DNA of 15,734 nucleotides, taken from the IMG/VR virus record IMGVR_UViG_2645727991_000015, positions 1 through 15,734 of that record. One strand, given 5' to 3'. Shown in pieces: positions 545 through 15,734 of this stretch; the first letter of the stretch is position 1, and the number at the start of each line of letters is the position of its first letter. The notes beneath the pieces were generated by a model that ran no database searches, was not told where the DNA came from, and worked only from the letters and a program-made list of their open reading frames with translations. Source of the stretch: a virus. Lineage: Duplodnaviria; Heunggongvirae; Uroviricota; Caudoviricetes. The position numbers and the translations under genes were made by a program.

Positions 545-1064
545 TCAGCAACCCCGGTATCAGTTCATCCAGCGCGGCTGCTTTGTTCATGGCTTTGATG
601 ATATCCCGTTTCAGGAAATCAACATGTCGGTTTTCCAGTTCCGGAAAACGCCGCTGCACCGACAGGGGGATCCCGTCGAGAATACTGGCAATTTCACCTG
701 CGATCCGCGACAGCACGAAAGTACAGAATGCGGTTTCCACCACTTCAGCGGAGTCTCTGGCATTTTTCAGCTCCTGTGCGTCGGCCTGCGCACGCGTAAG
801 TCGATGGCGTTCGTACTCAATAGTCCCTGGCTGGAGATCTGTCTCGCTGGCCTGCCGCAGTTCTTCAACTTCCCGGCGCAGCTTTTCGTTCTCAATTTCA
901 GCATCCCTTTCGGCATACCATTTTATGACGGCGGCAGAATCATAAAGCACCTCATTACCCTTCCCACCGCCTCGCAGAACGGGCATTCCCTGCTCCTGCC
1001 AGTTCTGAATGGTACGGATACTCGCGCCGAAAATGTCAGCCAGCTGCTTTTTGTTGACTTCCAT
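519..1064 (-). CDS. nu1: Terminase small subunit Nu1
   Basis: 181-aa ORF MEVNKKQLADIFGASIRTIQNWQEQGMPVLRGGGKGNEVLYDSAAVIKWYAERD... is essentially identical to lambda Nu1 from recall; it sits directly downstream of cos and upstream of A. Confidence 0.93.
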   Translation of the reverse strand: MEVNKKQLADIFGASIRTIQNWQEQGMPVLRGGGKGNEVLYDSAAVIKWYAERDAEIENEKLRREVEELRQASETDLQPGTIEYERHRLTRAQADAQELKNARDSAEVVETAFCTFVLSRIAGEIASILDGIPLSVQRRFPELENRHVDFLKRDIIKAMNKAAALDELIPGLLSEYIEQSG

Positions 1065-1149
1065 TGTTCATTCCACGGACAAAAACAGAGAAAGGAAACG
1101 ACAGAGGCCAAAAAGCCCGTTTTCAGCACCTGTCGTTTCCTTTCTTTTC

Positions 1150-1300
1150 AGGGGGTGTTTTAAATAAAAACATTAAGTTACGACGAAGAAGAACGGAAAC
1201 GCCTTAAACCGGAAAATTTTCATAAATAGCGAAAACCCGAGAGGTCGCCGCCCCGTAACCTGTCGGATCGCCGGAAAGGACCCGCAAAATGATAATAATT
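1150..1300. other. cos: cos packaging site (cosN 12-nt cohesive-end sequence at 1242..1253, with flanking cosB and cosQ regions)
   Basis: aggtcgccgccc at 1242..1253 is the reverse complement of the lambda cohesive end GGGCGGCGACCT. The flanking sequence on both sides matches lambda left-end and right-end sequence from recall, with a few substitutions. Nu1 starts about 190 bp away, as in lambda. Confidence 0.85.
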
Positions 1301-1452
1301 ATCATCTGCATGTCACAACGTGCATCTACGCCATCAAACCACGTCAAATAATCAATTATGACGCAGGTATCATATTAATTGATCTGCATCAACTTAACGT
1401 AAAAACAACTTCAGACAATACAAATCAGCGACACTGAATACGGGACAACCTC

Positions 1453-1647
1453 ATGTCAACGAAGAACAGAACCCGCAGAACAACAACCCGCAACATCCGC
1501 TTTCCTAACCAAATGATTGAACAAATTAACATCGCTCTTGAGCAAAAAGGGTCCGGGAATTTCTCAGCCTGGGTCATTGAAGCCTGCCGTCGGAGACTAA
1601 CGTCAGAAAAGAGAGCATATACATCAATCCAAAGTGATGATGGATGA
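1453..1647 (+). CDS. ylcI: Small basic protein, YlcI-like (DUF3950-type) hypothetical
   Basis: 64-aa ORF MSTKNRTRRTTTRNIRFPNQMIEQINIALEQKGSGNFSAWVIEACRRRL...; same size and position (between bor and the Nu1 homolog) as ylcI in DLP12-type prophages. Identity is by recall only. Confidence 0.5.
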   Translation: MSTKNRTRRTTTRNIRFPNQMIEQINIALEQKGSGNFSAWVIEACRRRLTSEKRAYTSIQSDDG

Positions 1648-2009
1648 ACATCCCGGTTTCTTCCACCATCGCACCGGAAAAGCGACTATGAGGGTAACCC
1701 TGCGTCTGTCAGCACAGTAAAACCCGGTGTGCATCGTTTTTGATTATTCCCGCACACTCACGCAGAAGGAATTCCCCGTCGGGCTACGGTCATGGTTAAT
1801 GCGGGAATACGGCGACGATACAGCGCAGCTAAAAGGGTAATAGACGGATAGACCGGTTTATTTCATTCCACAGGATTCTGAGTGTCCCCAACTTCCTCCA
1901 ATAGTCTGAGCGTACACCTATATAGTTTTAATTTTCATCAATCCATTTAACTATCGTTTAATTGTTGTCACATAGGATTCTGCCGTTTTTAACAATGCAG
2001 GATAATAAG

Positions 2010-2303
2010 ATGAAAAAAATGTTGTTTTCTGCCGCTCTGGCAATGCTTATTACAGGATGTGCTCAACAGACGTTTACTGTTGGAAACAAACCGACAGCAG
2101 TAACACCAAAGGAAACCATCACCCATCACTTCTTCGTTTCGGGAATTGGACAGGAGAAAACTGTTGATGCAGCCAAAATTTGTGGCGGCGCAGAAAATGT
2201 TGTTAAAACAGAAACCCAGCAAACATTCGTAAATGGATTGCTCGGTTTTATTACTTTAGGCATTTATACTCCGCTGGAAGCGCGTGTGTATTGCTCACAA
2301 TAA
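2010..2303 (+). CDS. bor: Bor lipoprotein (serum-resistance protein, Iss family)
   Basis: MKKMLFSAALAMLITGCAQQTFTV... carries a lipoprotein signal with lipobox LITGC and is near-identical to lambda Bor by recall. Start set at the ATG at 2010, preceded by a GGA-containing RBS; the track ORF starts further upstream at 1962. Opposite strand to the lysis genes, as in lambda. Confidence 0.88.
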   Translation: MKKMLFSAALAMLITGCAQQTFTVGNKPTAVTPKETITHHFFVSGIGQEKTVDAAKICGGAENVVKTETQQTFVNGLLGFITLGIYTPLEARVYCSQ

Positions 2304-2334
2304 TTGCATGAGTTGCCCATCGATATGGGCAGCT

Positions 2335-2796
2335 CTATCTGCACTGCTCATTAATATACTTCTGGGTTCCTTCCAGTTGTTTTTGCATAGTGATCAGCCT
2401 CTCTCTGAGGGTGAAATAATCCTGTTCAGCGGTGTCTGCCAGTCGGGGGGAGGCTGCATTATCCACGCCGGAGGCGGTGGTGGCTTCACGCACTGACTGA
2501 CAGACTGCTTTGATGTGCAACCGACGACGACCAGCGGCAACATCATCACGCAGAGCATCATTTTCAGCTTTCGCATCAGCTAACTCCTTCGTGTATTTTG
2601 CATCGAGCGCAGCAACATCACGCTGACGCATCTGCATGTCAGTAATTGCCGCGTTCGCCAGCTTCAGTTCTTTGGCATTTTTGTCGCGCTGGGCTTTATA
2701 GGTAATGGCGTTATCACGGTAATGATTAACAGCCCATGACAGGCAGACGATGATGCAGATAACCAGAGCGGAGATAATCGCGGTTACTCTGCTCAT
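2335..2796 (-). CDS. Rz: Spanin inner-membrane subunit Rz (i-spanin)
   Basis: [41 protein letters not shown]... matches lambda Rz (153 aa) by recall. Start ATG at 2796 overlaps the endolysin stop in an ATGA arrangement; the track ORF extends 4 codons further upstream. Confidence 0.9.
2394..2576 (-). CDS. Rz1: Spanin outer-membrane lipoprotein subunit Rz1 (o-spanin), embedded in the +1 frame of Rz
   Basis: 60-aa [54 protein letters not shown]... has a lipobox (VVGC) and a proline-rich region, lies entirely inside Rz in another frame, and matches lambda Rz1 by recall. Confidence 0.88.
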
Positions 2797-3290
2797 TGTT
2801 TCCCCCACAAACAGACTTCACGCTCAATCTCACGGCGAGTCATCAGTCCTTTCCATTGATTACCGCCAGCGTATGTCCAGCGCCGTAGCTGATCACATGC
2901 GCCTTTGATATCACCCTGGTTTATTTTGCGAAGAAGCGTCGATGTTCTGAAATTGCCAGCACCCACGTTGTAGACGAACGAGTAAAGAGCGCCGCGCGTT
3001 GTTTCCGGTATATCGACTTTGATGTACGGGTTAATTTGTCTGGCGACCGTGGCAAGGTCTTTATTCAGGAGGGCTTTGCATTCTGCTTTGGTATACGTTT
3101 TACCGAGCATGATGTCTTTTCCTGTATGCCCGTGACATACAGTCCATACACCAACAATATCTTTGTATGGTATGTAGCTGACACCTTCCAGACCATCGTT
3201 ACCACTTGGGCCAGTAATTAACACTGATGCTATAGCAATTGCTCCGCCACCAATAGCAGCAGCAACGGCTTTTCGTAATGATGGAGGCAT
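2793..3290 (-). CDS. R: SAR endolysin (T4-lysozyme-like muramidase, phage 21 R type)
   Basis: 165 aa with an N-terminal weakly hydrophobic Gly/Ala-rich signal-anchor-release segment ([20 protein letters not shown]) followed by a lysozyme-like region ([17 protein letters not shown]). Resembles the phage 21 / DLP12 RrrD endolysin by recall, not the lambda transglycosylase R. Confidence 0.85.
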
Positions 3291-3505
3291 TATTCACCTC
3301 TCGCAGCCTTGCGCTTATCTTCTTTAATCTTGAAATAAAGGTTTGTCAGGTACGTCAGCAGGCCAAATACCAGGCTACCCAGCACTCCAATTGCCGCCCA
3401 CTGTGAGGGCGTGACTTTATCTAGCAGCTGTAAAAACCAGTACCCGGCACTACCTGCTGAGGTGCCATAGGCGACACCCGTTGTTAACTTATCCATGGAT
3501 TTCAT
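3290..3505 (-). CDS. S: Class II holin (pinholin, phage 21 S type) with dual-start motif
   Basis: 71 aa [71 protein letters not shown]: two predicted transmembrane segments, charged C-terminus, and Met1/Met4 dual starts (MKSM) typical of holin/antiholin pairs. Matches S21 by recall. One-nucleotide overlap with the endolysin start. Confidence 0.88.
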
Positions 3506-4078
3506 AACCCCACCTCGCAGACAAAGCGGGTGTAAATTGAGGGAATACTACGAAACGTAACAGACTCGGAGTCAGTGAATAACTCAGGTATTGGGTTATC
3601 AGCTAATATCGAGACTCAAAAAATGGAAAAACCCACTCGACGGCGGGTTTAAGCTATGTGACGAAGTAACCACTCTTAACAGCATAACCAATTTTTTACG
3701 TACGTAAACCACTAAATGATATTTGCGAGAATGCTACCGAGTATTGAAAACACCACCACAAATACATAAGCAAATCTCAACAAATAACCAACAAATAATT
3801 CCCAGTGTTATTTTTAGCCGATTTAAATTGAACCTTCAAATCATAGAGCACTTATAAATAACAACCGTTAATATAAATTGGCTAATAGATTTATTTTTAT
3901 TCAGCCAAGAGCCATGAATAGGATTCGATAGAAAAAAGTTCAGATAAAAATAGAGATCTACTTCACAAATCAAACGAGAAACCAAAACTTACATCTTGAA
4001 ATAATCATATTGATTAGATGAATATTTATCGCGCAGTGACATCATTTTTTAATAATAGTTCAAAAAAAAGGGCTCACG

Positions 4079-5176
4079 ATGAAAAAATTAACAGTGGCAA
4101 TTTCTGCTGTAGCTGCATCAGTACTGATGGCGATGTCTGCTCAGGCAGCTGAAATTTATAATAAAGACAGTAACAAGCTGGATCTGTACGGGAAAGTTAA
4201 TGCTAAGCACTACTTCTCCTCTAATGATGCAGATGATGGTGATACTACTTATGCCCGTCTTGGCTTCAAAGGTGAAACCCAAATCAACGATCAACTGACT
4301 GGTTTCGGTCAGTGGGAATATGAATTCAAAGGCAACCGCGCTGAATCTCAAGGTTCCTCCAAAGATAAAACCCGTCTTGCCTTCGCTGGCCTGAAATTCG
4401 GTGACTACGGCTCCATCGATTACGGCCGTAACTACGGTGTAGCATACGACATCGGTGCGTGGACTGACGTTCTGCCAGAATTCGGTGGCGATACCTGGAC
4501 CCAAACAGATGTGTTCATGACTGGTCGCACCACTGGTGTAGCAACCTATCGTAACAACGACTTCTTTGGTCTGGTTGATGGTCTGAACTTTGCTGCTCAG
4601 TACCAAGGCAAAAACGATCGTAGCGATTTCGATAACTACACCGAAGGTAACGGTGATGGCTTCGGTTTCTCTGCTACCTATGAATACGAAGGATTCGGTA
4701 TCGGTGCAACTTATGCGAAATCTGATCGTACCGACACTCAAGTTAATGCAGGGAAAGTTCTTCCTGAAGTATTTGCTTCCGGTAAAAATGCAGAAGTTTG
4801 GGCCGCAGGTCTGAAATATGACGCTAACAACATTTACCTGGCCACTACCTATTCTGAAACCCAGAATATGACTGTATTTGCTGATCACTTCGTTGCTAAT
4901 AAAGCTCAAAACTTCGAAGCTGTTGCACAATATCAGTTCGATTTCGGTCTGCGTCCATCCGTTGCTTACCTGCAATCTAAAGGTAAGGATCTTGGAGTAT
5001 GGGGCGATCAGGACTTAGTCAAATATGTTGATGTAGGTGCAACCTATTACTTCAACAAAAATATGTCTACTTTCGTTGATTACAAAATCAACCTGCTTGA
5101 CAAAAATGACTTCACTAAAGCACTCGGTGTAAGCACTGATGACATCGTTGCTGTAGGTCTGGTTTACCAGTTCTAA
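4079..5176 (+). CDS. nmpC: Outer-membrane general porin, OmpC/NmpC (Lc) family, prophage-encoded moron
   Basis: 365 aa with a signal peptide ([25 protein letters not shown]), Gly/Tyr/Asp-rich beta-strand repeats and the C-terminal ...VGLVYQF ending in Phe, typical of enterobacterial 16-strand porins. Its position between Q and the holin on the opposite strand matches nmpC in DLP12-type prophages. Strong RBS (aaaagggctcacgATG). Confidence 0.88.
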
Positions 5177-5185
5177 TCTGATTAC

Positions 5186-5226
5186 GAAAAAGATATGTTG
5201 CGGGAGGCTTTGCCTCCCCAACATAT
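5186..5226 (-). terminator. Intrinsic terminator-like hairpin on the minus strand, candidate tR' of the late operon
   Basis: Near-perfect inverted repeat atatgttgcgggaggc/ttt/gcctccccaacatat at 5193..5226. On the minus strand the stem is followed by CTTTTT. Lies about 140-180 nt downstream of the Q stop, where a lambdoid tR' would be. Confidence 0.45.
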
Positions 5227-5365
5227 AAGTGGCTCCCTCAAGCCACTTCCTTTAGGAGCACAACCTTGCTTCTAACTATATAAACCTTCTGTTATATATT
5301 ACCCTTTATTTTTGGGGGCGTTGCAACGCCCCATTTTTAATAATTTTTAGTAAACAACTGGCATA
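5227..5365 (-). promoter_or_regulatory. Approximate location of late promoter pR' and Q-utilisation region (inferred from position only)
   Basis: Intergenic segment immediately downstream of Q on the minus strand and upstream of the tR'-like hairpin. Only weak sigma70-like hexamers are visible (e.g. TTGCAA ... GGTAAT on the minus strand); exact promoter not resolved. Confidence 0.3.
5314..5338 (+). terminator. Rho-independent terminator on the plus strand (likely porin gene terminator)
   Basis: Perfect palindrome ggggcgttgcaacgcccc at 5315..5332 followed by ATTTTT on the plus strand; about 140 nt downstream of the porin stop codon. Confidence 0.6.
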
Positions 5366-5749
5366 TTAATTAGAGTTATTAACAACGATATCCATCTCTA
5401 ACCGGATATCTAATGCCATTAACATCCCTTCAATTATGCCCTCAGCCTTCTGTAACCTTTTCCCGATATAACCATCAGAGCAGCAATGCTTACCTGCCAG
5501 TGACATGAATGTCATACCGACTACATAATAATCTACTAATAAATCGTGCAAATCGCTGTTGTTCTTTTTCAGACGGGCCATGCACCCGCAAATAATCATC
5601 GCGTCATCGTCACAACATTGCGGGCGAGATTTTACTTTTGAAGTAATTAATCCCTTAAAACCGGCGGCAATGGACGACCAGGTCACATCTTCATGATTAT
5701 TAGCCGCCCACGCTCCCCAACGCTCAAGAACCATCTGAATATCACGCAT
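5366..5749 (-). CDS. Q: Late-gene antiterminator Q (QuuD / phage 82-type Q family)
   Basis: [35 protein letters not shown]...[16 protein letters not shown]... (127 aa from the ATG at 5749, with a GGAG RBS 8 nt upstream; the track ORF starts at an upstream TTG). Matches DLP12 QuuD by recall; cysteine-rich putative zinc-binding region; located upstream of the lysis cassette. Confidence 0.8.
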
Positions 5750-5834
5750 CAACTTACTCCACAAAAATCAGGCCAGAACGCCAATTACAAGCAAAAATCA
5801 ACAAAACAGTATTAGTTGATTGTTATCTCTGACT

Positions 5835-5975
5835 TCATACTCCTGCTCCTGTCAGGGTTTTGGCGTAATTCTTCAGTATTCGGTAATCGGTCAAAACAGA
5901 ACCGGGGGAACGATATAAGCGCAGACGCCCCCAGCGGTGGCGAAGAAGTTCTGCCATATTAAACTCAAACATCAT
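5835..5975 (-). CDS. ylcG: Small nin-region protein YlcG-like
   Basis: 46-codon [49 protein letters not shown] found by manual translation (below the track size cutoff). Its start overlaps the rusA stop in an ATGA arrangement; same size and position as ylcG in DLP12. Confidence 0.6.
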
Positions 5976-6334
5976 TCATTCCCCATTTCGGTGATGGTCA
6001 GTTCCAGCCTCCCACCTTTGGTAACAGGCATCTTCACAACGCGGTAATCAACGACCTGAGCATCATCCAGCCAGAAACCTGCTTTAGTGAGTGCGTCAAA
6101 AGCGGCTTTTTGCAGATTATCCAGGTCACGGCGACGGAGATCCGGCATGTGGCACTCAATGCGGATTTTCACAGGCATAGCCAGGCCGATATCCAGCATT
6201 GCGTTTTTAATGATTCGGGCGACGTTATCGCGGTATGCCTGCACCTCTGCGCTGACGTGCGTGCGCCCGCGATTATGGCGGTAATAGCGATTATTGCTCG
6301 GAGGCCAGGGTAATGTGATGCTGTAGGTATTCAC
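5972..6334 (-). CDS. rusA: Holliday junction resolvase RusA
   Basis: 120 aa [93 protein letters not shown]... matches RusA by recall. Confidence 0.92.
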
Positions 6335-6621
6335 GCCTTAATAACCCCCTCTTTCAGCCAGATAACCTGTGTTCTCGCCATACCTTCCAGCGCGCATTCT
6401 TTTGCATATGCAGCATCGACAAAATGTGTGCGGCGGTCGATTTCGTCGTGGCAGGCAGAACATGCAATGGTGGCAATCAGGTCTGGCGGTTTGGTACCGG
6501 TGCCGCACAATCCAGTCAGCCGGATATGTGCCAGTACAGACGTTTCAGGGTTGCCATTACATACGCCAGGGATTCTTACCTGGCATTCCCGACCACGCGC
6601 TGCTTTTCTCAAATCAGCCAT
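6331..6621 (-). CDS. ybcO: YbcO-like nin-region protein (putative nuclease, cysteine-rich)
   Basis: [64 protein letters not shown]... (96 aa from the ATG at 6621, which overlaps the ninE stop; the track ORF extends upstream in frame). Matches DLP12 YbcO by recall. Confidence 0.85.
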
Positions 6622-6784
6622 GACTCCTCCTTGCTGCCAGTCGCAACCATTTTTTATCAACCAGGCTGGCGGTATACCCGAGCAGTGTTGGTATTTCGGA
6701 TGGCTTCAGCTCAGGTTTACGCTTACGACGATTTGGTACTCTGTAGATGTGTCCGTTCATGACACGAATAAGCGGTGTAGCCAT
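6614..6784 (-). CDS. ninE: NinE protein
   Basis: Manual translation gives 56 aa [56 protein letters not shown], matching lambda/DLP12 NinE by recall. Start overlaps the ybcN stop (TAATG) and the stop overlaps the ybcO start. Confidence 0.85.
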   Translation of the reverse strand: MATPLIRVMNGHIYRVPNRRKRKPELKPSEIPTLLGYTASLVDKKWLRLAARRSHG

Positions 6785-7239
6785 TACGCCTCCTGCTTGT
6801 CGCGCAGCAGCTGGAACTCGCAGCTCTGCGGAATAGTCAGGTGGCAGCCAATATTCATCGCCCAGGCTTCAACCTTACACAGGAAGACATACATCTCTCC
6901 GGTATCGAGATCGGAGGTATGACGTAATGACTGAATGGTGGTGATTTCACCGGTTACGACATCAACCAGTTCTTTGGTTTCATAACCGAGATAAGTGTGT
7001 TTGAGAGCATCTTTTACCCAAGCTGGAGTGGCGAACGTTTTACCCCTGCTGATGAGGTATTCACTGATTTCGCTGTACCACATGTGGCTGAGTGCATTCT
7101 GGGAAAGACTGCGTCTCTCTCGCCACGGTTTAAGCACCATGCGAAAGCATTTGCCTTCCTCCAGATAAGGCTGGATCTGCTGGCCGATAGCGGTGAAGTT
7201 GCCGCGATGTAATTTGATGCCGTCTTGTGAGAGGTTCAC
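6784..7239 (-). CDS. ybcN: YbcN-like nin-region protein
   Basis: 151 aa (M)[57 protein letters not shown]...; GTG start at 7239 with GGAGG RBS upstream. Matches DLP12 YbcN by recall. Confidence 0.85.
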
Positions 7240-7423
7240 GCTTCACCTCCGCAGAGGTCAAACGCTAGATGCAAAGAATTGCAGGTGCATTTCTGCATCT
7301 GTGAAGGGAGAAGAGAGTTTGGATTGTATGTGCGCATAAACGTCCCCGTTTAGCGCAGAAGTCACCGGAGTTGTTCAGGCTCCGATGACATGATTATGGC
7401 GGGTTGATAACGAAAAATCAAAA

Positions 7424-7525
7424 CTACTTTTTGGTGTTCTGTTCGGCCATTTCGATGTAGCGCGGATCAGATGCGCTGGCTATTCTCTGGCGACCCGTTC
7501 CGCTATCATCGGCATGTTCAAACAT
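7424..7525 (-). CDS. Possible small ORF (33 aa), YlcH-like by position and length
   Basis: Manual translation MFEHADDSGTGRQRIASASDPRYIEMAEQNTKK, preceded by an in-frame TAA. No convincing Shine-Dalgarno sequence. The only support is that DLP12 has a 33-aa ylcH gene just upstream of ybcN. Confidence 0.3.
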   Translation of the reverse strand: MFEHADDSGTGRQRIASASDPRYIEMAEQNTKK

Positions 7526-7575
7526 TTTGTAAGCGTCACCGGAGGTGGTGAGATCAACGTTACATTACTATATTT

Positions 7576-7611
7576 ATAATAAGCCTCAATTCAAACATTG
7601 AGGCTTATTAT
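7576..7611. repeat. Perfect 15-bp inverted repeat / stem-loop (ataataagcctcaat-tcaaac-attgaggcttattat) at the boundary of the AT-rich insert
   Basis: Read directly from the sequence: arms 7576..7590 and 7597..7611 are exact reverse complements, 10 nt downstream of the RloB-like stop codon. No U-tract follows on either strand, so it is not a canonical intrinsic terminator. Confidence 0.7.
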
Positions 7612-7621
7612 AATGAAAAAA

Positions 7622-8257
7622 TTACGGCACAAATGAATCTATAGCATCAAGCAACTCATTCACATTCGTATAACACCCAAGAAGAAATGGTCTATTAGAA
7701 TGAGGAGGAGCTGCATTTAAACTTTGTTTATTTAGTGCCTTCGCTCTTTGTCTGGCATTAGGAATACCAAGTCTAATTTTCTTATACAACGTAGCATCGG
7801 CTTTATTATAATCCTTTATACCCACTGATAGTAAATCTTTTTTCAAAGTAGAGTTTTTCTTTAGATCATCAAAACTTGAGTAAGGTGTATTCTTAAATGC
7901 AAAGTGTTGTAAAATCCACAATTCAAAACAAACATTTGACAACGCAATATTAATATTGTTTGCATGGGCTAAATCCCATGCTTCATGGTGTAATGTGTGT
8001 GGGTATTTTGTGACAGCCTCTCTATCATATACAACCCAAAATTCATCATCATCCGATGTATCACCACTTTCCTTGTGTTTAATTGCAGCCTTTACTAAGG
8101 CTATTGGTGTGTTATATTTTATATCAGGGATATGTATAACTTTTGCTTTCTCACTAGCAAATTCATCGATATAACCCTGCAAGTACATAGGTTCTGTTTT
8201 AGACCCTTCGCAAAAAATATGCATTCGTTTCTCTAATTTTCTCACGTTTTTTGCCAT
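7622..8257 (-). CDS. RloB-like protein (AbiLii-like; putative effector/partner of the upstream ATPase)
   Basis: 211 aa with N-terminal motif ...HIFCEGSKTEPMYLQGYI..., which I recognise as the conserved CEGxxTEPxY signature of the RloB family (recall, not searched). Strong RBS AAGGTGA; separated by 6 nt from the upstream ATPase gene; AT-rich codon usage unlike the flanking phage genes. Confidence 0.65.
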   Translation of the reverse strand: MAKNVRKLEKRMHIFCEGSKTEPMYLQGYIDEFASEKAKVIHIPDIKYNTPIALVKAAIKHKESGDTSDDDEFWVVYDREAVTKYPHTLHHEAWDLAHANNINIALSNVCFELWILQHFAFKNTPYSSFDDLKKNSTLKKDLLSVGIKDYNKADATLYKKIRLGIPNARQRAKALNKQSLNAAPPHSNRPFLLGCYTNVNELLDAIDSFVP

Positions 8258-8263
8258 GATCTA

Positions 8264-9604
8264 TCACCTTAAATCTTCTGGAATATCATCGATGTTACCA
8301 AATACTGTTAAATCAGTATCTTCAGGTTCACCACCTGTTACCTCAATGATAAAATCCTTTATTTTCATATAGTTAATTGATGGGACGCCACCAAAACGCC
8401 CTTCATCATACCACTTGTTAAAAGGTGAGTTAGCCTTAACCTTTTCTTTATCAAACTCATCTAAACTATAAACTTCGGTTACACCTTTTTTCTTTTCAGT
8501 AAACCAAATCTGATCTCTTCTCATATTTTCTGATTTCATCAACTCAATGTTATGAGTTGTAAATATGAGCTGAGAGCCTACTTTATTAACCTCACTATCG
8601 TTAAACAGTCTGATTAAAAGTGCAGCCAAATGTGGATGCATGCTGTGGTCTATTTCATCGATAATTAACACTCGATTTATTAAAAGACCAGAAATTAGGG
8701 CAGGTGTTAATTCAAATAACCTACGAGTTCCTGCTGACTCATTTTCAATATCTATATCAGCACATTCTCCACCCTCCATGTCATGCTCAAATTTAAAGCT
8801 AAATCGATTTTCAGCCAAAATTCTTCGTTTCATATCTTCCGGCATTTCATCAGGTAGCTTAATATCTAGTTCTTTATTTTCGACAATCCTTAGTTGGTTT
8901 ATACCCGTATCAACCAATGATAAGAAGTTACCGGAAAAACGAATAAGCATGTCTCTAAATTTCTCATCCTCAAGATGAAGAGCATTAAAACTTGATTCCA
9001 TTCCAATAGGACAAATTAACTGCGAAAAGTACTCATATACTTCCTTAGCAATCTCTGGAGCCTCAGCGACAGTGCCGATCTTTGATAGATAAGAGTTATT
9101 TTTAGAAAATGGAATTTTCTTTACTCCACCTTTGAATTGCGCCCCAAATTTAATATTCTCCCAACCATTATTCACACGATAGAACAAATTCGATGGCTGC
9201 TTGGAGTAATAACAATCTAAACTCTCCAATATAATTTCTTTTTGAAGATAATGTATTTTATATTTAAATTTCAAATCATTGATCACAAAGTCAATTTCAA
9301 ACTTTACTGGCTTTGAGATTGTTTTTTGACAAAGAGAATATGGTTCATAACAAGGGATATCCTCGCCATCTTTCAACGAAAAGCTATCCTCAACAAGATA
9401 ATTTAATGCAGAAAACACCTTTAGAAGGTTTGACTTCCCTGAAGCATTAGGACCATAAATTCCAACGGTACGTACAACCCGCTCATTGCTTTTGGGAAGA
9501 ACAAGCAAATTATCGCTTAAGTGGTTACTTGTTGAACTACGCAGATCAAAGTTAACCTCTTCTTTGATCGACCTAAAATTCTCAACTTTTAAGGAAATTA
9601 TCAT
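8264..9604 (-). CDS. ABC-type / AAA_21-like ATPase (AbiLi-like; putative anti-phage abortive-infection ATPase)
   Basis: 446 aa with Walker A GPNASGKSN, Walker B VLIIDEIDHSMHP and an H-loop-like LIFTTHN. AT-rich; forms a tight two-gene operon with the RloB-like gene. Confidence 0.75.
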   Translation of the reverse strand: MIISLKVENFRSIKEEVNFDLRSSTSNHLSDNLLVLPKSNERVVRTVGIYGPNASGKSNLLKVFSALNYLVEDSFSLKDGEDIPCYEPYSLCQKTISKPVKFEIDFVINDLKFKYKIHYLQKEIILESLDCYYSKQPSNLFYRVNNGWENIKFGAQFKGGVKKIPFSKNNSYLSKIGTVAEAPEIAKEVYEYFSQLICPIGMESSFNALHLEDEKFRDMLIRFSGNFLSLVDTGINQLRIVENKELDIKLPDEMPEDMKRRILAENRFSFKFEHDMEGGECADIDIENESAGTRRLFELTPALISGLLINRVLIIDEIDHSMHPHLAALLIRLFNDSEVNKVGSQLIFTTHNIELMKSENMRRDQIWFTEKKKGVTEVYSLDEFDKEKVKANSPFNKWYDEGRFGGVPSINYMKIKDFIIEVTGGEPEDTDLTVFGNIDDIPEDLR

Positions 9605-9960
9605 AAAACGATCCTCTAAAACGTACTTTTACAGTAAAAAAATGACAAAAAATGCCTAATCACGAGATTGTAATCTATAATAATATACTTTTATACAACT
9701 ATTTCTTGGTTTTGTACCCTTATAAGCACAAGAAGAATGCAATCATCATATTGAGTTACTACAAGAGCTGGACTGCCCCCTTCCGGAAGACGATCTTGCC
9801 CGATAGTTTCTTCCCTCCACTCCCACGGGTCTACGCCAGTTGGGCATCCTGAAAACTCCCGACAATCTCGATGGTTTCCAGCGCTGCTATGGGGTCGTTC
9901 ATGATAATTATATTAAGTTTGACCAAAAACTGACTTCACCTTCAGAAGGAGCGCAGTTAA

Positions 9961-10161
9961 TCAAATCGATAATTTCTTCAGGTGTCTCTTTAACGTCGAT
10001 ATACTCGCCAGAGGATATTTCAGAGTTGTAATACCATGCAGAGTCATGATAACGATATGCCCTACGGCAACAAACACAGGCTCGAAGACTGTTTCAGGTT
10101 CCCAGCCATATTTCCCCTGACGCTCAATCGTCGCTTGCTGGCTCAATTTGATGATTTTCAT
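9961..10161 (-). CDS. Hypothetical small protein, start coupled to the ren stop (possibly a truncated remnant of a nin gene)
   Basis: 66-aa ORF MKIIKLSQQATIERQGKYGWEPETVFEPVFVAVGHIVIMTLHG... whose ATG overlaps the ren stop in an ATGA arrangement. No recognisable family; lies at the edge of the AT-rich insert. Confidence 0.35.
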   Translation of the reverse strand: MKIIKLSQQATIERQGKYGWEPETVFEPVFVAVGHIVIMTLHGITTLKYPLASISTLKRHLKKLSI

Positions 10162-10451
10162 GTCTTAGCTCTCCCATATACCGCCAATACCCGTTTCATC
10201 GCGGCACTCTGGCGACACTCCTTAAAAATCAGATTCGTGCTCACCTTTCCTTCCCGTTCTTCTCTGGTAGCGAACCGGTAATACACCGTTCGCCAGACCT
10301 TACCATCAACGACCAGGATTCCTGCCCGCGCCATTTTAGCCGCAGCCTGATTTATGCTGGTTACGGTTGCGCCTGTTACCGCGGCAACGTCCTGCGCACA
10401 GAAGTTCTTATGAGTCCCCAGGTAATGAATAATTGCCTCTTTGCCCGTCAT
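10158..10451 (-). CDS. ren: Ren (Rex-exclusion resistance protein)
   Basis: 97 aa MTGKEAIIHYLGTHKNFCAQDVAAVTGATVTSINQAAAKMARAGILVVDGKVWRTVYYRFATREEREGK... matches lambda Ren by recall; immediately downstream of P. Confidence 0.88.
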   Translation of the reverse strand: MTGKEAIIHYLGTHKNFCAQDVAAVTGATVTSINQAAAKMARAGILVVDGKVWRTVYYRFATREEREGKVSTNLIFKECRQSAAMKRVLAVYGRAKT

Positions 10452-11149
10452 ACACTTACTCCTTTCAGCCCAAACTTAGCTTTGATTTCTGCGATCTTCG
10501 CCAGAGCCTGTGCACGATTTAGAGGTCTACCGCCCATGACAGGAAGTTGTTTTACTGGTTCAGGTATAGCCTCACCACGGTTAATTCGTGCGGCCATACA
10601 GGACAGTTCATCGGCAGCCTTGCGCCGTAATTCCGCGTCAGTCAACGCATTGGCCCGCATGTTCTGATACAGGTTGGTAACCAGCCAGTAGTGCGCGTTT
10701 GATTTCCACGGATAAGACTCTGCATCCGGATACAGGCCACGCTTCCGGCAATACTCGTAAACCATATCAACCAGCTCGCTGACGTTTGGCAGCCCGGCGT
10801 TAACAGATGCTTCTTCCCGGCACCAGGCGACAAACTGCCCGGGTGATGGCAGGAATGGTCGATTCTGCCGACGGGCTACGCGCATTCCAGCGTTAACCTG
10901 TTCCATTGTGGTGATCCCGTTTTCCCGGAAAGCCAGAACCCACTGGCGGCGGATTTCGTTCAGTTCATTCTGGTCACGGTTAGCCAGGCTCGCCGGGAAA
11001 GTTGCCAGTAACTGGCTGAACACACCGTTGATGATCTGCGCTACCTGCTGTACCTGCGGCTTTTCGTCGTACTGTTCCGGCATATTGTTGGCGATCCGGC
11101 GCATCTGCTCACGGTCAAAGTTAACCATCTGTGCGGCGATGTTTTTCAT
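10448..11149 (-). CDS. P: Replication protein P (DnaB helicase loader)
   Basis: 233 aa MKNIAAQMVNFDREQMRRIANNMPEQYDEKPQVQQVAQIINGVFSQLLATFPASLANRDQNE... is near-identical to lambda P by recall; overlaps the O stop. Confidence 0.93.
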   Translation of the reverse strand: MKNIAAQMVNFDREQMRRIANNMPEQYDEKPQVQQVAQIINGVFSQLLATFPASLANRDQNELNEIRRQWVLAFRENGITTMEQVNAGMRVARRQNRPFLPSPGQFVAWCREEASVNAGLPNVSELVDMVYEYCRKRGLYPDAESYPWKSNAHYWLVTNLYQNMRANALTDAELRRKAADELSCMAARINRGEAIPEPVKQLPVMGGRPLNRAQALAKIAEIKAKFGLKGVSV

Positions 11150-12075
11150 AAATCCACCCCGTAAATCCAGTCAGTGTTCGTCAGGTCGAGTTTTGGTTTG
11201 CCGGCTGTCACGCCAGCCTGTTGCTTGTTTCGGTTGATTTCGAGCTGGGTCCACTTGTCGCGGAGTTTGGCCGGACTCAGCACGTTACCGGACCAGAAGT
11301 TGTCCTGGCATGCCCAGCGGAACAGCACGCACATGTCGCGGTGGTTACGTCCGTCACGTTCACGCATCAGGCGGATATCGTTAGCCCACCCTGCAAAATT
11401 CGGTTTTCTGGCTGATGGCGCGATGGTCTTCACCATGTCAAACATCCACTCTGCGGCGGTCAGGTCTTCTGCTGTCCCCCACTTGCTGCCACTCTGAATT
11501 GCAGCATCCGGTTTCACCACAGGAAGGTCGTTTTCTGGCTGGTCAGAGGATTCGCCAGAATTCTCGGACGAAAAAGGTTTTATATTGTCTTTTGTTAGTT
11601 TGTCTTTTGTGTTTACCTGATTCGGGTAAACGCCTTTACCTGATTTGGGTAAACTTTTCTTACCTGATTCAGGTAAATTTACCTCTTTCAGGTAAACTTT
11701 ATTTTTCTTACCTGATTCGGGTAATGTTGACCATTCACTGACCACATTATTAATGCCGATATTTCGCCCGCTCTGAATAAGAATCCCACGCTTTACCAGA
11801 ACGCTTTTTGCAGCAGAACACTTGTGCGGCAATATCCCGGTCAATTCGGAAAGTTGCTCGTTGCTCACCCAATCCAGTCTTTTATTAAAGCCATATGTTT
11901 TGCGCATGACAGCCAGGAAGACCAGAAGCTGGTGCTGTGTTAATCCGGCCAGCATCACAGCTTCCAGCAACTCATTTGCAATGCGCGTATAACCATCATC
12001 GAGATCTGCCACGCGCGGCTCCTTTTGTGCCGCATCCGGCACTGGAAAATTGAATATCTCAGCAGTGTTTGCCAT
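11146..12075 (-). CDS. O: Replication initiator O (lambda-like C-terminal domain, non-lambda N-terminal iteron-binding domain)
   Basis: From the ATG at 12075 (RBS GGGAG): MANTAEIFNFPVPDAAQKEPRVADLDDGYTRIANELLEAV... aligns with lambda O MTNTAKILNF...VADLDDGY..., and the C-terminal half (SSENSGESSDQPENDL...WIYGVDL) is near-identical to lambda O by recall. An alternative in-frame start at 12165 (the track ORF) overlaps the upstream gene stop in an ATGA arrangement. Confidence 0.88.
   Translation of the reverse strand: MANTAEIFNFPVPDAAQKEPRVADLDDGYTRIANELLEAVMLAGLTQHQLLVFLAVMRKTYGFNKRLDWVSNEQLSELTGILPHKCSAAKSVLVKRGILIQSGRNIGINNVVSEWSTLPESGKKNKVYLKEVNLPESGKKSLPKSGKGVYPNQVNTKDKLTKDNIKPFSSENSGESSDQPENDLPVVKPDAAIQSGSKWGTAEDLTAAEWMFDMVKTIAPSARKPNFAGWANDIRLMRERDGRNHRDMCVLFRWACQDNFWSGNVLSPAKLRDKWTQLEINRNKQQAGVTAGKPKLDLTNTDWIYGVDL
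11575..11724. repeat. ori: Replication origin inside O: AT-rich tract (11575..11612) plus five 17-bp iterons TTACCTGATTCGGGTAA (11613..11629, 11636..11652, 11660..11676, 11679..11695, 11708..11724)
   Basis: Five direct repeats with the same 17-mer core and inverted ends (TTACC...GGTAA) read directly from the sequence, spaced 19-29 bp start to start, with an AT-rich segment on the transcription-downstream side. Same organisation as lambda ori but a different iteron sequence. Confidence 0.8.
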
Positions 12076-12161
12076 AATTACTCCCGCAATGAGTGTGTTA
12101 CGATTTGCACCTGAAAGTCGGTTCTGTTCCAGCAGACCGGCTTTCGCCATTTCTGAACCTG

Positions 12162-12707
12162 TCATATTGCCCCCAGCATGGTGGTGACCATCGCCATCAG
12201 TGGACCAGCCAAATCCGGGTCCACACGAAACATCGACACAATGCCTTCACTCATCTCCTTCAGTTTCTGGTGGCGTGGTGCGTTGAGAATGACAGCCTGT
12301 TTTGCCTCACTGAGTTCCTTTTCCATTTCAGCCAGCCGAGCCATGAAGCTATCCTGCTCAACCAGGTGGCCGCGATATTTCAGCGGTAGTACTGCCAGAA
12401 TTGCTGGAGTCAGTTCACGCACGTTATTTCGGTATTTTTCAGAATCGAATTTGTTATCGAGAAAGCGGAACAGCTTCTGGCGTGCACGACTGACATCATC
12501 AGGAAAATCGATAGTGCCGCCGCCCTGTGCTCGATACTAATTCACAATGAGTGCGGCAACGACATCCTGATTATCTACAGCCGACCAGGCGCGGATGGCA
12601 TCACGGATTTTTTCGTGGCCTGGCACCTGTTTTATTTGAGAACGATTTATCACCGCAGTCGGGATAAATCCGCTAGTCTGTTGGTATGTAAGTGGTTGCA
12701 TAGTCAT
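12162..12707 (-). pseudogene. cII-position gene (YdaT-like by recall) interrupted by a single in-frame TAG at 12537..12539
   Basis: A 56-codon ORF (MTMQPLTYQQTSGFIPTAVINRSQIKQVPGHEKIRDAIRAWSAVDNQDVVAALIVN, stop TAG) and the track ORF 12162..12422 are in the same frame; the only stop between them is that TAG. Read-through would give about 181 aa (...VN*YRAQGGGTIDFPDD...LTPAILAVLPLKYRGHL...). Confidence 0.55.
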
Positions 12708-12731
12708 TGCCTTATCAGTTAACGCCGCAGT

Positions 12732-12959
12732 TTAGGCGGCAGAATTACTCGCGTTAAACAATGGTGCGAGGTCGGGACGAATATCTGCTGGTTTAATCTT
12801 TCCACCAGTGGCTGAGACAATTTTCATTACATAGCGGGCATCAATTCCGCCACCGTGTAGCCAACGCCAAACAGTGGGTTGGGCTACACCGCATAGATCT
12901 GCCAGTCGTTTTTGACTACCTGTAATACTGATTGCGAGTTGAATGGTTTGATTTGTCAT
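12732..12959 (-). CDS. cro: Cro-like HTH DNA-binding protein (YdaS/Cro family)
   Basis: 75 aa from the ATG at 12959 (RBS AGGAA): MTNQTIQLAISITGSQKRLADLCGVAQPTVWRWLHGGGIDARYVMKIVSATGGKIKPADIRPDL...; helix-turn-helix-like segment; divergent from the CI-like repressor across a roughly 110-bp operator region. Confidence 0.7.
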   Translation of the reverse strand: MTNQTIQLAISITGSQKRLADLCGVAQPTVWRWLHGGGIDARYVMKIVSATGGKIKPADIRPDLAPLFNASNSAA

Positions 12960-13069
12960 TATCAATTCCTACTGGTATTGCAATGAATGAATAATAGCAA
13001 TGCGTATTAATCCAAGCAATAGCAAAACGTGTTTTGACCATCAATACGCAAGCGTATAAATTAAAACTT
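12960..13069. promoter_or_regulatory. Divergent immunity control region (putative OR operators with pR and pRM)
   Basis: 110-bp AT-rich intergenic region between the divergent cro-like and cI-like genes. Contains repeated ATAGCAAT-type motifs (12993..13009, 13016..13028) and an imperfect palindrome atacgcaagcgtat (13044..13057). No Shine-Dalgarno sequence precedes the cI ATG, consistent with a leaderless pRM transcript as in lambda. Confidence 0.55.
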
Positions 13070-13762
13070 ATGAAAAAAGAAACTCTTGCTGATCGCTTAA
13101 ACCTAGCGATGGAACAATCTGGAATGTCTCAAGGCGCTCTTGCAAAGGCGTCTGGCGTAGCTCAACCCACAATCTGGAGACTGACAAGCGGCAACGCGCG
13201 CGGCTCAACAAAAATTGTTGAAATAGCTAATGCATTGGGTGTTCGAACAGAATGGCTCTCATCAGGCATAGGCCCGATGAGAAATGACGGTCAACAATCA
13301 GGGAAGCCTGCTGTCAGCCATTCCAAATACTTCAAAATTGACGTTCTTGATATAGAAGTCAGTGCCGGGCCGGGTGTAATCAACCGTGAGTTTGTAGAAG
13401 TTCTACGCTCGGTTGAGTACTCGTTTGACGATGCTCGTCACATGTTCGATGGCAGGAAGGCGGAAAATATCCGCATCATTAACGTGCGTGGTGACAGCAT
13501 GTCAGGAACGATCGAACCAGGTGATCTGCTGTTCGTTGATATCACGGTTAAATCTTTCGACGGTGATGGTATCTATGCGTTTCTGTACGACGACACAGCC
13601 CATGTAAAGCGCCTGCAAATGATGAAAGATAAGCTACTGGTTATCTCTGATAACAAGAGCTACTCACCGTGGGACCCGATCGAGAAAGACGAGATGAACC
13701 GGGTGTTCATCTTCGGTAAGGTTATTGGGAGCATGCCGCAGACGTACAGGAAGCATGGTTAA
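13070..13762 (+). CDS. cI: CI-like prophage repressor (N-terminal HTH, C-terminal S24 LexA-like autopeptidase domain)
   Basis: From the ATG at 13070: MKKETLADRLNLAMEQSGMSQGALAKASGVAQPTIWRLTSGN... (HTH), with C-terminal ...INVRGDSMSGTIEPGDLLFVD...HVKRL... (Ser and Lys residues of the S24 catalytic dyad in the usual spacing). The track ORF starts at an upstream TTG (13034). Confidence 0.85.
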   Translation: MKKETLADRLNLAMEQSGMSQGALAKASGVAQPTIWRLTSGNARGSTKIVEIANALGVRTEWLSSGIGPMRNDGQQSGKPAVSHSKYFKIDVLDIEVSAGPGVINREFVEVLRSVEYSFDDARHMFDGRKAENIRIINVRGDSMSGTIEPGDLLFVDITVKSFDGDGIYAFLYDDTAHVKRLQMMKDKLLVISDNKSYSPWDPIEKDEMNRVFIFGKVIGSMPQTYRKHG

Positions 13763-13843
13763 TAATTAGCCTGTAGCTTTTTAAGGCACACTCTTTTCAA
13801 GAATATTAAATAGAACGCTATATGGCATAAACAAGGACTTAGG

Positions 13844-14317
13844 ATGGAAAAGCCTAGCTTCCCACCTCTTCTTACAGCAGGATTTCATGATATGGATAGT
13901 GATGGCATCAAGTCTCTTTGTGTCGACACCTTCCCAAAATCCGTTAGAAGAAGTATGCTATACTGTAATTTTATACAGCTTATTGAGCAATTTAAACTTG
14001 TTAATCAGCAGTGTCTATGTTTCTCTGAAGTGTGGATCGATGGTTCATTCACTACAGAGAAACCTGAACCTGATGACATAGATATACTCGTGGTCGTCGA
14101 TTATTTGGCCCTAAACTCTTTGCCAAACACGCTGATGCCATTGGTTAGCTCATTGTTAAATAGAGATTTTATTAAAGAAAACTACAGCATTGACGTTCTT
14201 TTGCTGCCTGAAAATCATCCAGAAATCGATTATAGTGAAAGGCGAAGTTACTGGAGAGGGTGGTTTGGTTTTGATCGGAAGGAGAATCCTAAAGGCCTCG
14301 TGAGGGTAATGTTATGA
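13844..14317 (+). CDS. Hypothetical protein with nucleotidyltransferase-like motif, first gene of the rex-position operon
   Basis: 157 aa; contains WIDGSFTTEKPEPDDIDILVVVD, resembling the GS...DxD signature of minimal (Pol-beta superfamily) nucleotidyltransferases. Directly downstream of cI with no intervening terminator; stop overlaps the next start (ATGA). Confidence 0.5.
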   Translation: MEKPSFPPLLTAGFHDMDSDGIKSLCVDTFPKSVRRSMLYCNFIQLIEQFKLVNQQCLCFSEVWIDGSFTTEKPEPDDIDILVVVDYLALNSLPNTLMPLVSSLLNRDFIKENYSIDVLLLPENHPEIDYSERRSYWRGWFGFDRKENPKGLVRVML

Positions 14318-15246
14318 GCGAAGAAAAAACATTCAACTCCCTCAAGGAGCGAATTGCGTTCATTCAACGCGATGTGGATCTGCTTGCTCAAAATAAGGGG
14401 AGATCATTTGCTGATGACATTATATTTAGATCACTTGACTCCCATCTGAGCGATCTCCGAGAGAGACAACGTGCAATCGATAACCAACATCCTTTACGTG
14501 ATTTCATGGAGTTGAGATTAAAAGGTGTTTTGGTCGATTTCGGGTCTATTCCGTTAGATATTCTATCTGTAATTTCAGGTAATCTCGCATCCCTTGTACA
14601 GAAAGCAGTTTACCGACTTGGATCTGGGAAAGATTCTAGTCGTGTGCCGATTGATGTTAAAAAATCATTAGACATGAGATTGGCAGACTTGCGTCCAGGT
14701 TCGACGAAGTTAGGTGTTACTTTTTCTACTGGTTCTTGCGAGCTCATCGAAACAGTATCCAGTCATGCTGTTAAGGAGATTTTTGCACTACTCTCATCCA
14801 TTGATGAAGAAACATTCACGGCTAAAATTGCCGAAATTGGTTCGCAATCAACAGCTAACCTAAAAAACATCATAAATGAGTGCGAAAAATATAGTCTTAA
14901 CTTTGATCTTACTTGGATTGGACCTTTAAGTGATGGTACCAGACAAGTGTCAATTTCTTCAGAAGATATAAAAAAACTGAATGCTCGCTTAGCTTTAACG
15001 AAGGTCATTCAGCTACCGGATGAGCATATATCAGGCGAACTTGCTATTTTATCCATGTACGGGAAATTGGAGATTGCAAGCGAGCTTGGAAAAATAAAGG
15101 CTTCTTATCCGATTGATATGTTAGGAGAAATTCAAAGTAAATATAAAGTTGGTGAACGAATATCGCTCGTAGTAAGCGTTTCTGAGATTCACAATGAAAG
15201 ATTAGGAACATCACGACGTAACTACATGGTTAAAAAAATCGAATAG
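14314..15246 (+). CDS. Hypothetical protein (310 aa), second gene of the rex-position operon
   Basis: Long ORF translationally coupled to the upstream gene; followed by a strong intrinsic terminator. No family recognised from sequence alone. Confidence 0.5.
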   Translation: MSEEKTFNSLKERIAFIQRDVDLLAQNKGRSFADDIIFRSLDSHLSDLRERQRAIDNQHPLRDFMELRLKGVLVDFGSIPLDILSVISGNLASLVQKAVYRLGSGKDSSRVPIDVKKSLDMRLADLRPGSTKLGVTFSTGSCELIETVSSHAVKEIFALLSSIDEETFTAKIAEIGSQSTANLKNIINECEKYSLNFDLTWIGPLSDGTRQVSISSEDIKKLNARLALTKVIQLPDEHISGELAILSMYGKLEIASELGKIKASYPIDMLGEIQSKYKVGERISLVVSVSEIHNERLGTSRRNYMVKKIE

Positions 15247-15253
15247 TGATGCT

Positions 15254-15281
15254 ACCCGGCCACCGTGCCGGGTTTTCTTTT
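15254..15281 (+). terminator. Rho-independent terminator ending the cI/rex-position operon
   Basis: Hairpin cccggc-caccgt-gccggg at 15255..15272 followed by TTTTCTTTT, 8 nt after the stop codon of the 310-aa gene. Confidence 0.75.
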
Positions 15282-15379
15282 GCCTCCCCCTCATCACACA
15301 AACCGTTCGAAAAACCACCATAACCCCCGCTTCAGTTATCGCTATGCGATGCAAGTCACAAAATTAATTCTTTTTGCTA

Positions 15380-15480
15380 TCAAGCATTTAATATCAAAAC
15401 ACATCAGCCAATAGCGATAAGTATTGATATCACCAATAGCAATAGCTATTATCACCATATCGCAACAACACAACGATACG
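15380..15480 (+). promoter_or_regulatory. Putative OL/pL region (operator-like repeats upstream of the expected N operon)
   Basis: Contains CAATAGC-type motifs similar to those in the cro-cI intergenic region (ccaatagcgataag, caccaatagcaatagctatt), the palindrome AATAGCTATT (15452..15461) and two TATCACC copies. Position matches OL/pL in a lambda-like layout; promoter hexamers not resolved. Confidence 0.4.
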
Positions 15481-15734
15481 GCAACCACCTGATTCACCGT
15501 TGCGATGACCGCTTAGATCCGCAGCTTGAATTTCAGCAGGCTCCGGGGAGTGCGAGGGGTGAAGCGGACGCGTGAACGTCGGTGTGACCAGCTGAAATCA
15601 ACTCAACACCTCATACCTCAGTCGCTTCAACGAGGCGTATGAAACGACAATAACTCAGTCCGCCTGGCGCCGATTATTCTGGCCGGTTTTGTAACCTGAG
15701 TGTCATTTACATGATCCAACAGGAAATGGCGTGA

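Follow-up and report, generated by a model that had tools for sequence, protein, structure and literature searches.

The window analysed here is a stretch of 15,734 nucleotides, positions 1 to 15,734 of the IMG/VR virus record IMGVR_UViG_2645727991_000015 (Caudoviricetes). Directly after the gene for a CI repressor (13070..13762, + strand; 230 aa; Pfam Peptidase_S24 1.3e-18, HTH_3 1.8e-6) it carries two genes, here called A (13844..14317, + strand), encoding a predicted 157-aa minimal nucleotidyltransferase (NTase), and B (14314..15246, + strand), encoding a 310-aa partner. In phages with lambda immunity, a pair of this type takes the place of rexA-rexB exactly, to the base. The two genes may form a lysogen-expressed superinfection exclusion or abortive-infection module directed against other phages, plausibly temperate ones; we put the probability of this at a little below even, about 0.45. 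It is supported by a match to the defence-candidate family PDC-M63, by the coupling of the genes, by the slot and its nature as a hotspot, by expression and by the layout of the terminator. New here are the base-level allelism with rexAB, the repressor linkage seen in 53 of 54 phage contigs, an OB fold in B and the evidence of expression.

A cassette allelic with rexA-rexB

In two IMG/VR contigs (L061 and L063, about 2400-5480) with true lambda cI, oR and oL, the open reading frame (ORF) before an A-B pair encodes lambda CI itself (PDB 3bdn, E 1e-156). Between cro and a point 31 nt beyond cI, these contigs share 98-99% of their bases with lambda. Lambda homology returns with the final base of rexB and extends through oL, and the gap is filled by a pair with 61% (L061) and 55% (L063) identity to that of the window. 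An A-B-type pair is exactly allelic with rexA-rexB at the base level in these contigs, which supports the rexAB position that an earlier note on this DNA had given to the genes. The likeness extends to orientation and to the logic of regulation, each set following cI, preceding oL/pL and ending in a terminator, but not to the proteins. RexA has no sequence relationship with either (hhalign probability 0.3% against B and 0.1% against A), RexB is a multi-pass membrane protein whereas the window pair has no membrane segment, and the pair includes an enzyme, the predicted NTase, which Rex lacks.

The slot also varies behind a constant repressor. DNA homology to PhiR68_2 and 4A7, whose cI proteins are 98-100% identical to that of the window, ends at the cI stop codon (13758-13764) and resumes at the first base of the terminator (15254-15255). 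In 4A7 the slot (L003 3844-5260) holds the PADLOC candidate PDC-M11, a 353-aa protein with a 125-aa ASCH-domain protein. That of PhiR68_2 (L002 3857-5312) holds a pair of 341 and 149 aa with no PADLOC or Pfam match, which is less described than the A-B pair. The suggestion that this is a hotspot for exchanged cargo is borne out by these phages, and the cI-N interval is a mosaic hotspot that holds rexAB and bstA (PMC8585504). BstA of Salmonella prophage BTP1 is likewise repressor-linked and expressed in lysogens, with its own terminator, in the cI-N hotspot (PMC8585504). It differs in being a single protein with demonstrated abortive infection and an aba self-immunity element, and the window pair has no PADLOC match to it.

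The exchangeable cassette A+B (13765..15253, + strand) runs from the cI stop codon to the shared terminator and has a GC content of 0.39-0.40 against 0.48 for cI. The identical cassette is found in E. coli chromosomes behind two repressors that have a common C-terminal (S24) domain and differing N-terminal helix-turn-helix (HTH) domains; the cro proteins of those two immunity types are 44% identical. The cassette is a discrete, self-contained accessory unit. A recombination joint inside cI lies near window 13206 (window 13070-13205 against L017 2309-2441).

Both proteins match PDC-M63 end to end, with no difference from the family. A matches the PADLOC-DB v2 model PDC-M63A (PDLC04744) at E 7.4e-43 over residues 1-156 of 157, and B matches six PDC-M63B hidden Markov models (HMMs; best E 4e-42, residues 25-309 of 310). 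With both proteins present, adjacent and in the co-directional order required by PADLOC, the pair is a PDC-M63 member. In addition, A is Pfam DUF6932 and phrog_9194, and B is phrog_6603 (5e-177). The view that the pair fits no named system and is undescribed has to be given up: it is a catalogued, unvalidated defence candidate. PDC systems are 145 untested candidates taken from cassettes embedded inside known defence systems (bioRxiv 10.1101/2024.01.29.577857), and DefensePredictor explicitly left them out as unvalidated. A literature search on DUF6932, the RefSeq accessions and PhiR30 found nothing.

An ORF check confirmed the coordinates of both genes and their overlap, in which the ATGA at 14314-14317 is at once the start of B and the stop of A. 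Shine-Dalgarno-like sequences precede A (AAGGA, 13832-13836) and B (GAGGG). Among 57 phage contigs encoding a homologue of B, 55 have A directly before B with the same 4-nt overlap; of the other two, L034 starts inside B, so has no A, and L076 has A directly upstream with a different junction. The genes are adjacent with the same overlap in all six complete genome loci of Enterobacterales examined. Distant homologues of A (35-42% identity) in Pseudoalteromonas, Bermanella and a metagenome contig are likewise coupled, to a protein of 303-312 aa that matches the B profile at 1e-78 to 1e-90. Translational coupling, proposed earlier from the window, thus extends to three distant lineages. No A-B fusion was seen among the matches listed.

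A and B are real genes, given at least 129 homologues of A and 279 representatives of B at 50% clustering; the best 150 of these 279 are about 300-356 aa long, fragments aside. The E. coli allele is present in 98 of 5426 complete E. coli genomes (about 2%), always in the chromosome and always at ≥ 99% identity.

Conservation of the genomic context was assessed in the 54 phage contigs that have enough upstream sequence for a repressor to be counted. A same-strand HTH and/or S24 repressor-like ORF ends 59-270 nt before A in 53 of them, so that the pair stands right after the repressor as it does in the window. Outside immunity regions, the Pseudoalteromonas pair lies in a Tn3/mer-flanked island beside GmrSD-like and RecD2-like genes, the Bermanella pair adjoins imuB-dnaE2, and the pairs of L008 and L009 are near phage tail genes. 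The non-phage contexts indicate that the pair is self-sufficient.

The layout of the region suggests that A and B are read with cI. The 81-nt spacer between cI and A (13763..13843, + strand), which includes the ribosome-binding site of A, recurs in 12 of the IMG/VR loci that have an identical pair (L023-L033, L044). A consensus scan of 12700-15734 found no + strand terminator-like or promoter-like site in the cI-A interval, and folding of the spacer gave no significant structure (z = -0.76). The sole + strand terminator-like site in the scanned region is at 15254-15273, followed by TTTTCTTTT. Hairpin (ACCCGGC-N6-GCCGGGT) and U-run together (15254..15281, + strand) form a plausible intrinsic terminator that is common to the alternative cassettes. 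The earlier note had described no terminator between cI and the pair and a strong one after it; both placements hold, and 'strong' is a matter of judgement at a hairpin folding energy of -13.3 kcal/mol.

Operator-like arrays flank this unit. The oR-side array (12993..13041), between the divergent cro (12732-12965, - strand) and cI, is a 49-nt direct repeat that is 71% identical to the oL-side array (15410..15458, + strand). The latter includes a pL-like promoter (TTGATA-17-TATTAT at 15424-15452, a 10/12 promoter-like match). From this repetition on both sides, cI and A-B sit between oR and oL, as do cI-rexA-rexB in lambda.

Expression in a lysogen can be judged from E. coli NC101, whose prophage NC-SV carries the cassette at 99.7% identity (cI, GQ584_RS06850; A, RS06845; B, RS06840). 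RNA-seq compared the wild type with an NC-SV deletion strain 10 minutes post infection with a virulent phage (S1 Data, PMC12803456). B (log fold change, logFC, -11.74) and A (-11.13) have the two largest values in the table, ahead of cI (-9.76), cro (-6.65), kil (-5.79) and O (-4.97) of the same prophage (PMC12803456). Because NC-SV genes are absent from the deletion strain, logFC tracks their abundance in the wild type, which places A and B among the most abundant NC-SV transcripts in the one NC101 data set available. With a rough length correction of logFC, they are about 3-4 fold over cI per nucleotide. These data support expression of A and B in lysogens, together with cI, as had been predicted. 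They are compatible with co-transcription of cI-A-B from the repressor promoter, to which a further promoter or a more stable transcript may add.

Inside A (14190-14236), upstream of B, there are two overlapping sigma-70-like matches. They recall the lambda pLIT promoter, which is located inside rexA; the number of such matches is no higher than in shuffled sequences, and they are to be read as a lead. A small RNA (sRNA), svsR, has been placed at the 3' end of the gene for the same cI protein in NC-SV and credited with lower phage adsorption (2026 paper); it would directly precede the cassette, at about 13680-13762 of the window.

The close tie to cI raises the question of whether the pair acts on its own prophage. 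It might modulate the lysis-lysogeny decision or induction, for example through an OB fold that senses single-stranded DNA or damage and an NTase that modifies a regulatory target, with no anti-phage role. Placement right after a CI-type repressor in nearly all phage contigs, expression alongside cI and the two negative defence tests described below fit such a role, and RexA of lambda reportedly affects the switch from lysogenic to lytic growth. However, the repressor-like ORFs upstream of A fall into at least 17 sequence clusters; working with so many unrelated repressors, the pair cannot depend on a specific one. The coupled pair also occurs outside immunity regions (Pseudoalteromonas, Bermanella, L008 and L009), and PADLOC drew its whole PDC class of candidates from cassettes that lie within defence systems. 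A role confined to the prophage's own switch is quite unlikely.

The two proteins

A belongs to Pfam DUF6932 (4e-26), with the Polbeta and DNA_pol_B_palm models matching below threshold only. The hallmark of Pol-beta NTases, hG[GS]-x9-13-Dh[DE]h with a third acidic residue, is present. The catalytic motif, D66-G67-S68 with D78-x-D80, lies in residues 66-86 (DGSFTTEKPEPDDIDILVVVD; 14039..14101, + strand). An alignment of 37 homologues, down to 35% identity, has D66, G67, S68, T71, K73, P76, D78, D80, W137, R145, K150 and G151 invariant, and D117, as the third acid, reaches at least 90% conservation. Fold searches found the NTase alpha/beta fold. The nucleotidyltransferase-like motif that drew attention to A is thus an invariant GS-x9-DxD in a matching fold and not a spurious hit. 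These data support a distant relationship in which A is a divergent, minimal Pol-beta nucleotidyltransferase, and A is probably an active enzyme.

A has a conserved C-terminal motif of its own (RSYWRGWFG..R...PKG) and no membrane segment (maximum 19-residue Kyte-Doolittle mean 1.26). Its start is placed at an internal Met in the GenBank record of PhiR30_1 (141 aa; window 13844-13891, L001 8845-8892). The 157-aa start is favoured, given that the first 16 residues are conserved (P8, G13; FPPLL.xGFHD) and that RefSeq agrees. A match of RSYWRGWFG to ribosome modulation factor was not significant (E 0.34). Antibiotic NTases were also considered: ANT enzymes are structural neighbours of A, but they have a drug-binding C-terminal domain that A lacks and would be out of place in a phage and defence setting, and this reading was rejected.

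Among other Pol-beta-fold NTases, AbiEii and MenT (DUF1814) form part of two-gene phage-resistance or toxin-antitoxin modules and offer a possible analogy in action on tRNA or RNA 3' ends. They differ from A, which has no DUF1814/AbiEii match, and their NTase gene comes second whereas it is first in the window pair. No AbiEi or MenA-like partner for A was found with Pfam or PADLOC. The NTases of these systems are about twice the size of A.

B, a soluble protein of 310 aa, combines a coiled coil with a middle region that has no fold assignment and, at its C-terminus, an OB fold of the nucleic-acid type. Residues 10-57 (14341..14484, + strand) are predicted to form a helical hairpin or coiled coil, with helices H10-25 and H32-57 in the AF2 secondary structure (pLDDT 74-83), and residues about 229-309 form the OB fold (14998..15240, + strand). 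The model has a pLDDT of 72 and is unreliable at residues 100-150; deeper recruitment of homologues added just five sequences. Pfam gave no family for B, alone or across 63 family members, and a PDB sequence search with B, including the 63-member profile, gave nothing significant.

In the 63-sequence alignment, which reaches down to 18% identity, only S130 and W201 are invariant, and G71, G77, P80, G105, G129, F157, G176 and G241 are nearly so. Ser130 (codon 14701..14703, + strand) lies in a G-S-T turn in which S130 is present in 63/63 and G129 in 62/63 sequences. The alignment has no conserved acidic, histidine or lysine set pointing to a nuclease or other enzyme, and no membrane segment is predicted in B (maximum 19-residue Kyte-Doolittle mean 1.54). 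An LRLxG...G[ST] pattern occurs twice, at residues 66-78 and 121-131. B also matches the PADLOC candidates PDC-M32A and PDC-M02B weakly (E about 0.005-0.01), in a way that allows no interpretation.

The structural neighbours of A include the CD-NTases CdnB, CdnC, CdnD and CdnE. Together with the nucleic-acid-type OB fold of B, this would suit a pair that signals through nucleotides, as in CBASS, Hailong or Panoptes, in which A would make a nucleotide or oligonucleotide signal that B binds through its OB fold and transduces. A local match of B residues 63-99 to a SAVED chain (9r8s, E 0.47) points the same way; it was lost with a deeper profile, and a SAVED/CARF-like sensor was rejected as noise. 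CBASS combines a SMODS-type CD-NTase of about 300 aa or more with a recognised effector. At 157 aa, A lacks the helical C-terminal domain of CD-NTases and has no CBASS, SMODS or other signalling HMM match in Pfam or PADLOC, and B has no effector module. Signalling of this kind is very unlikely.

Other structural neighbours of A, and among its best matches, are the MNT antitoxins of HEPN-MNT pairs (7ae9, 7ae2, 8xeh, 5yep, 1no5). In HEPN-MNT modules the NTase gene comes first and the partner gene overlaps it. The pairs of Shewanella (SO_3166/SO_3165), Aphanizomenon (MntA-HepT) and Haemophilus (HI0073/HI0074) resemble the window in this order and in their small GS...DxD NTase. They differ in the partner, since B, with 310 aa, a coiled coil and an OB fold, has no conserved Rx4-6H and is not HEPN, and also in that A has its own Pfam family, DUF6932. 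A HEPN reading of B was rejected: the family does not conserve the Rx5H string that B has locally (RAIDNQH, residues 53-59), R53 included, and no HEPN Pfam match rises above noise.

The pair could nevertheless act as a type VII-like toxin-antitoxin or addiction module, in which A, in the manner of MNT, would nucleotidylate and neutralise B, stabilising the prophage or firing upon loss or inhibition of A, and dedicated defence would not be needed. Besides the structural neighbours and the gene order, this draws on the invariant G129-S130, which adjoins a low-confidence loop of B and makes the Ser130 loop a candidate acceptor. Against it are the lack of a HEPN motif, the absence of any toxic activity evident in B, and the free exchange of the cassette among phages with no sign of addiction. 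In addition, E. coli OkiPb01716 has an IS3 at the A/B junction (L021 2298-4961), which leaves a 154-aa A and an intact, uncoupled B; tolerance of this split in one genome weakly counters strict toxin-antitoxin dependence. We regard a toxin-antitoxin role as unlikely.

Evidence for and against phage exclusion

Several results weigh against a role of the pair in exclusion. The only paper naming PDC-M63 deleted PDC-M63AB from an E. coli NILS69 prophage, and challenge with 10 virulent dsDNA phages gave no evidence of defence. Deletion of the whole NC-SV prophage from NC101 did not change the efficiency of plating of four virulent phages. An effect of NC-SV on plaque size and adsorption was reproduced by the sRNA alone, encoded at the 3' end of cI. 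No effector domain can be recognised in B (nuclease, TIR, patatin and membrane segment are all absent), and confidence in the model is low for the middle third of the protein (pLDDT about 50). The split of A and B by IS3 belongs here as well. The two negative tests lower the probability of defence, though only in part, given that the panels were small, that they comprised virulent phages only, and that the classical phenotype of Rex itself is very narrow.

The proposal of an 'NTase plus effector' made from the window can be kept for its NTase half; the effector half is doubtful, given the lack of such a domain in B. Nucleotidyl transfer by A, the only catalytic activity in the pair, would then be the output. 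A and B most likely form a complex in which B supplies binding of a target or ligand, probably a single-stranded nucleic acid. A nucleic-acid cue of infection, sensed through B, would release or direct A. A could then nucleotidylate B itself (as MNT does HEPN), the 3' ends of RNA or tRNA (following the logic of MenT and AbiEii) or DNA ends, and if B is the target then Ser130 is a candidate acceptor. Modification of the target would halt growth of the phage or the cell. The position between oR and oL may let expression drop when the carrier's own prophage goes lytic, which would spare the carrier phage.

In its most specific form, exclusion would follow a new mechanism. A minimal NTase, guided by a coiled-coil/OB partner that senses single-stranded nucleic acid, would nucleotidylate a target upon superinfection, probably by a temperate phage; it would have been missed by panels of virulent phages and would replace RexAB functionally, with an entirely different chemistry. 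This version is tentative, and we consider it doubtful.

Prophage genes driven by the repressor promoter influence which phages succeed in infecting a lysogen, with the rexAB slot as the classic example, and the pair is present in NC101, an adherent-invasive E. coli (AIEC) model strain. If exclusion is the function, an NTase-based mechanism with no recognisable effector joins the known repertoire, and it would be relevant to the prediction of host range in phage therapy. If it is not, a 'defence candidate' label combined with a hotspot position is shown to be insufficient. Either way the cassette is a worthwhile experimental target of moderate interest.

The surrounding immunity region

Escherichia phage PhiR30_1 (PV340558) is closely related to the element in the window but has a different genome: the two are identical over window 13030-15308 and 98.75% identical over 10183-15637. 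E. coli NC101 and STIN_95 encode a cI protein identical to that of the window (RefSeq WP_001295669.1). The genes of the window follow the lambda order, read leftward, with P, O, a cII-position gene and cro on the - strand. On the + strand follow cI, A, B, the terminator and the operator/promoter block, and then kil, gam, bet and exo, these last four in PhiR30_1.

No N-like ORF was seen between the pL-like promoter and kil (window 15459-15734; PhiR30_1, L001 10248-10560), and the PhiR30_1 annotation places a small - strand ORF there that looks spurious. Folding of the pL leader (15455-15600) gave no significant structure, and an Rfam scan of 12500-15734 returned no real match.

The cII-position gene (12162-12707, - strand) carries the name cII in PhiR30_1, whereas RefSeq calls its product 'toxin YdaT domain-containing protein'. 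It has an in-frame stop at 12537-12539 (...ALIVN*YRAQ...) that arises from one base relative to PhiR30_1, at 12539 (A against C). The element may be defective in the establishment of lysogeny, or it may be a decaying prophage. Further along, window 7398-10182 has no counterpart in PhiR30_1, whose nin-to-ren interval holds a different segment; it is another mosaic cargo site.

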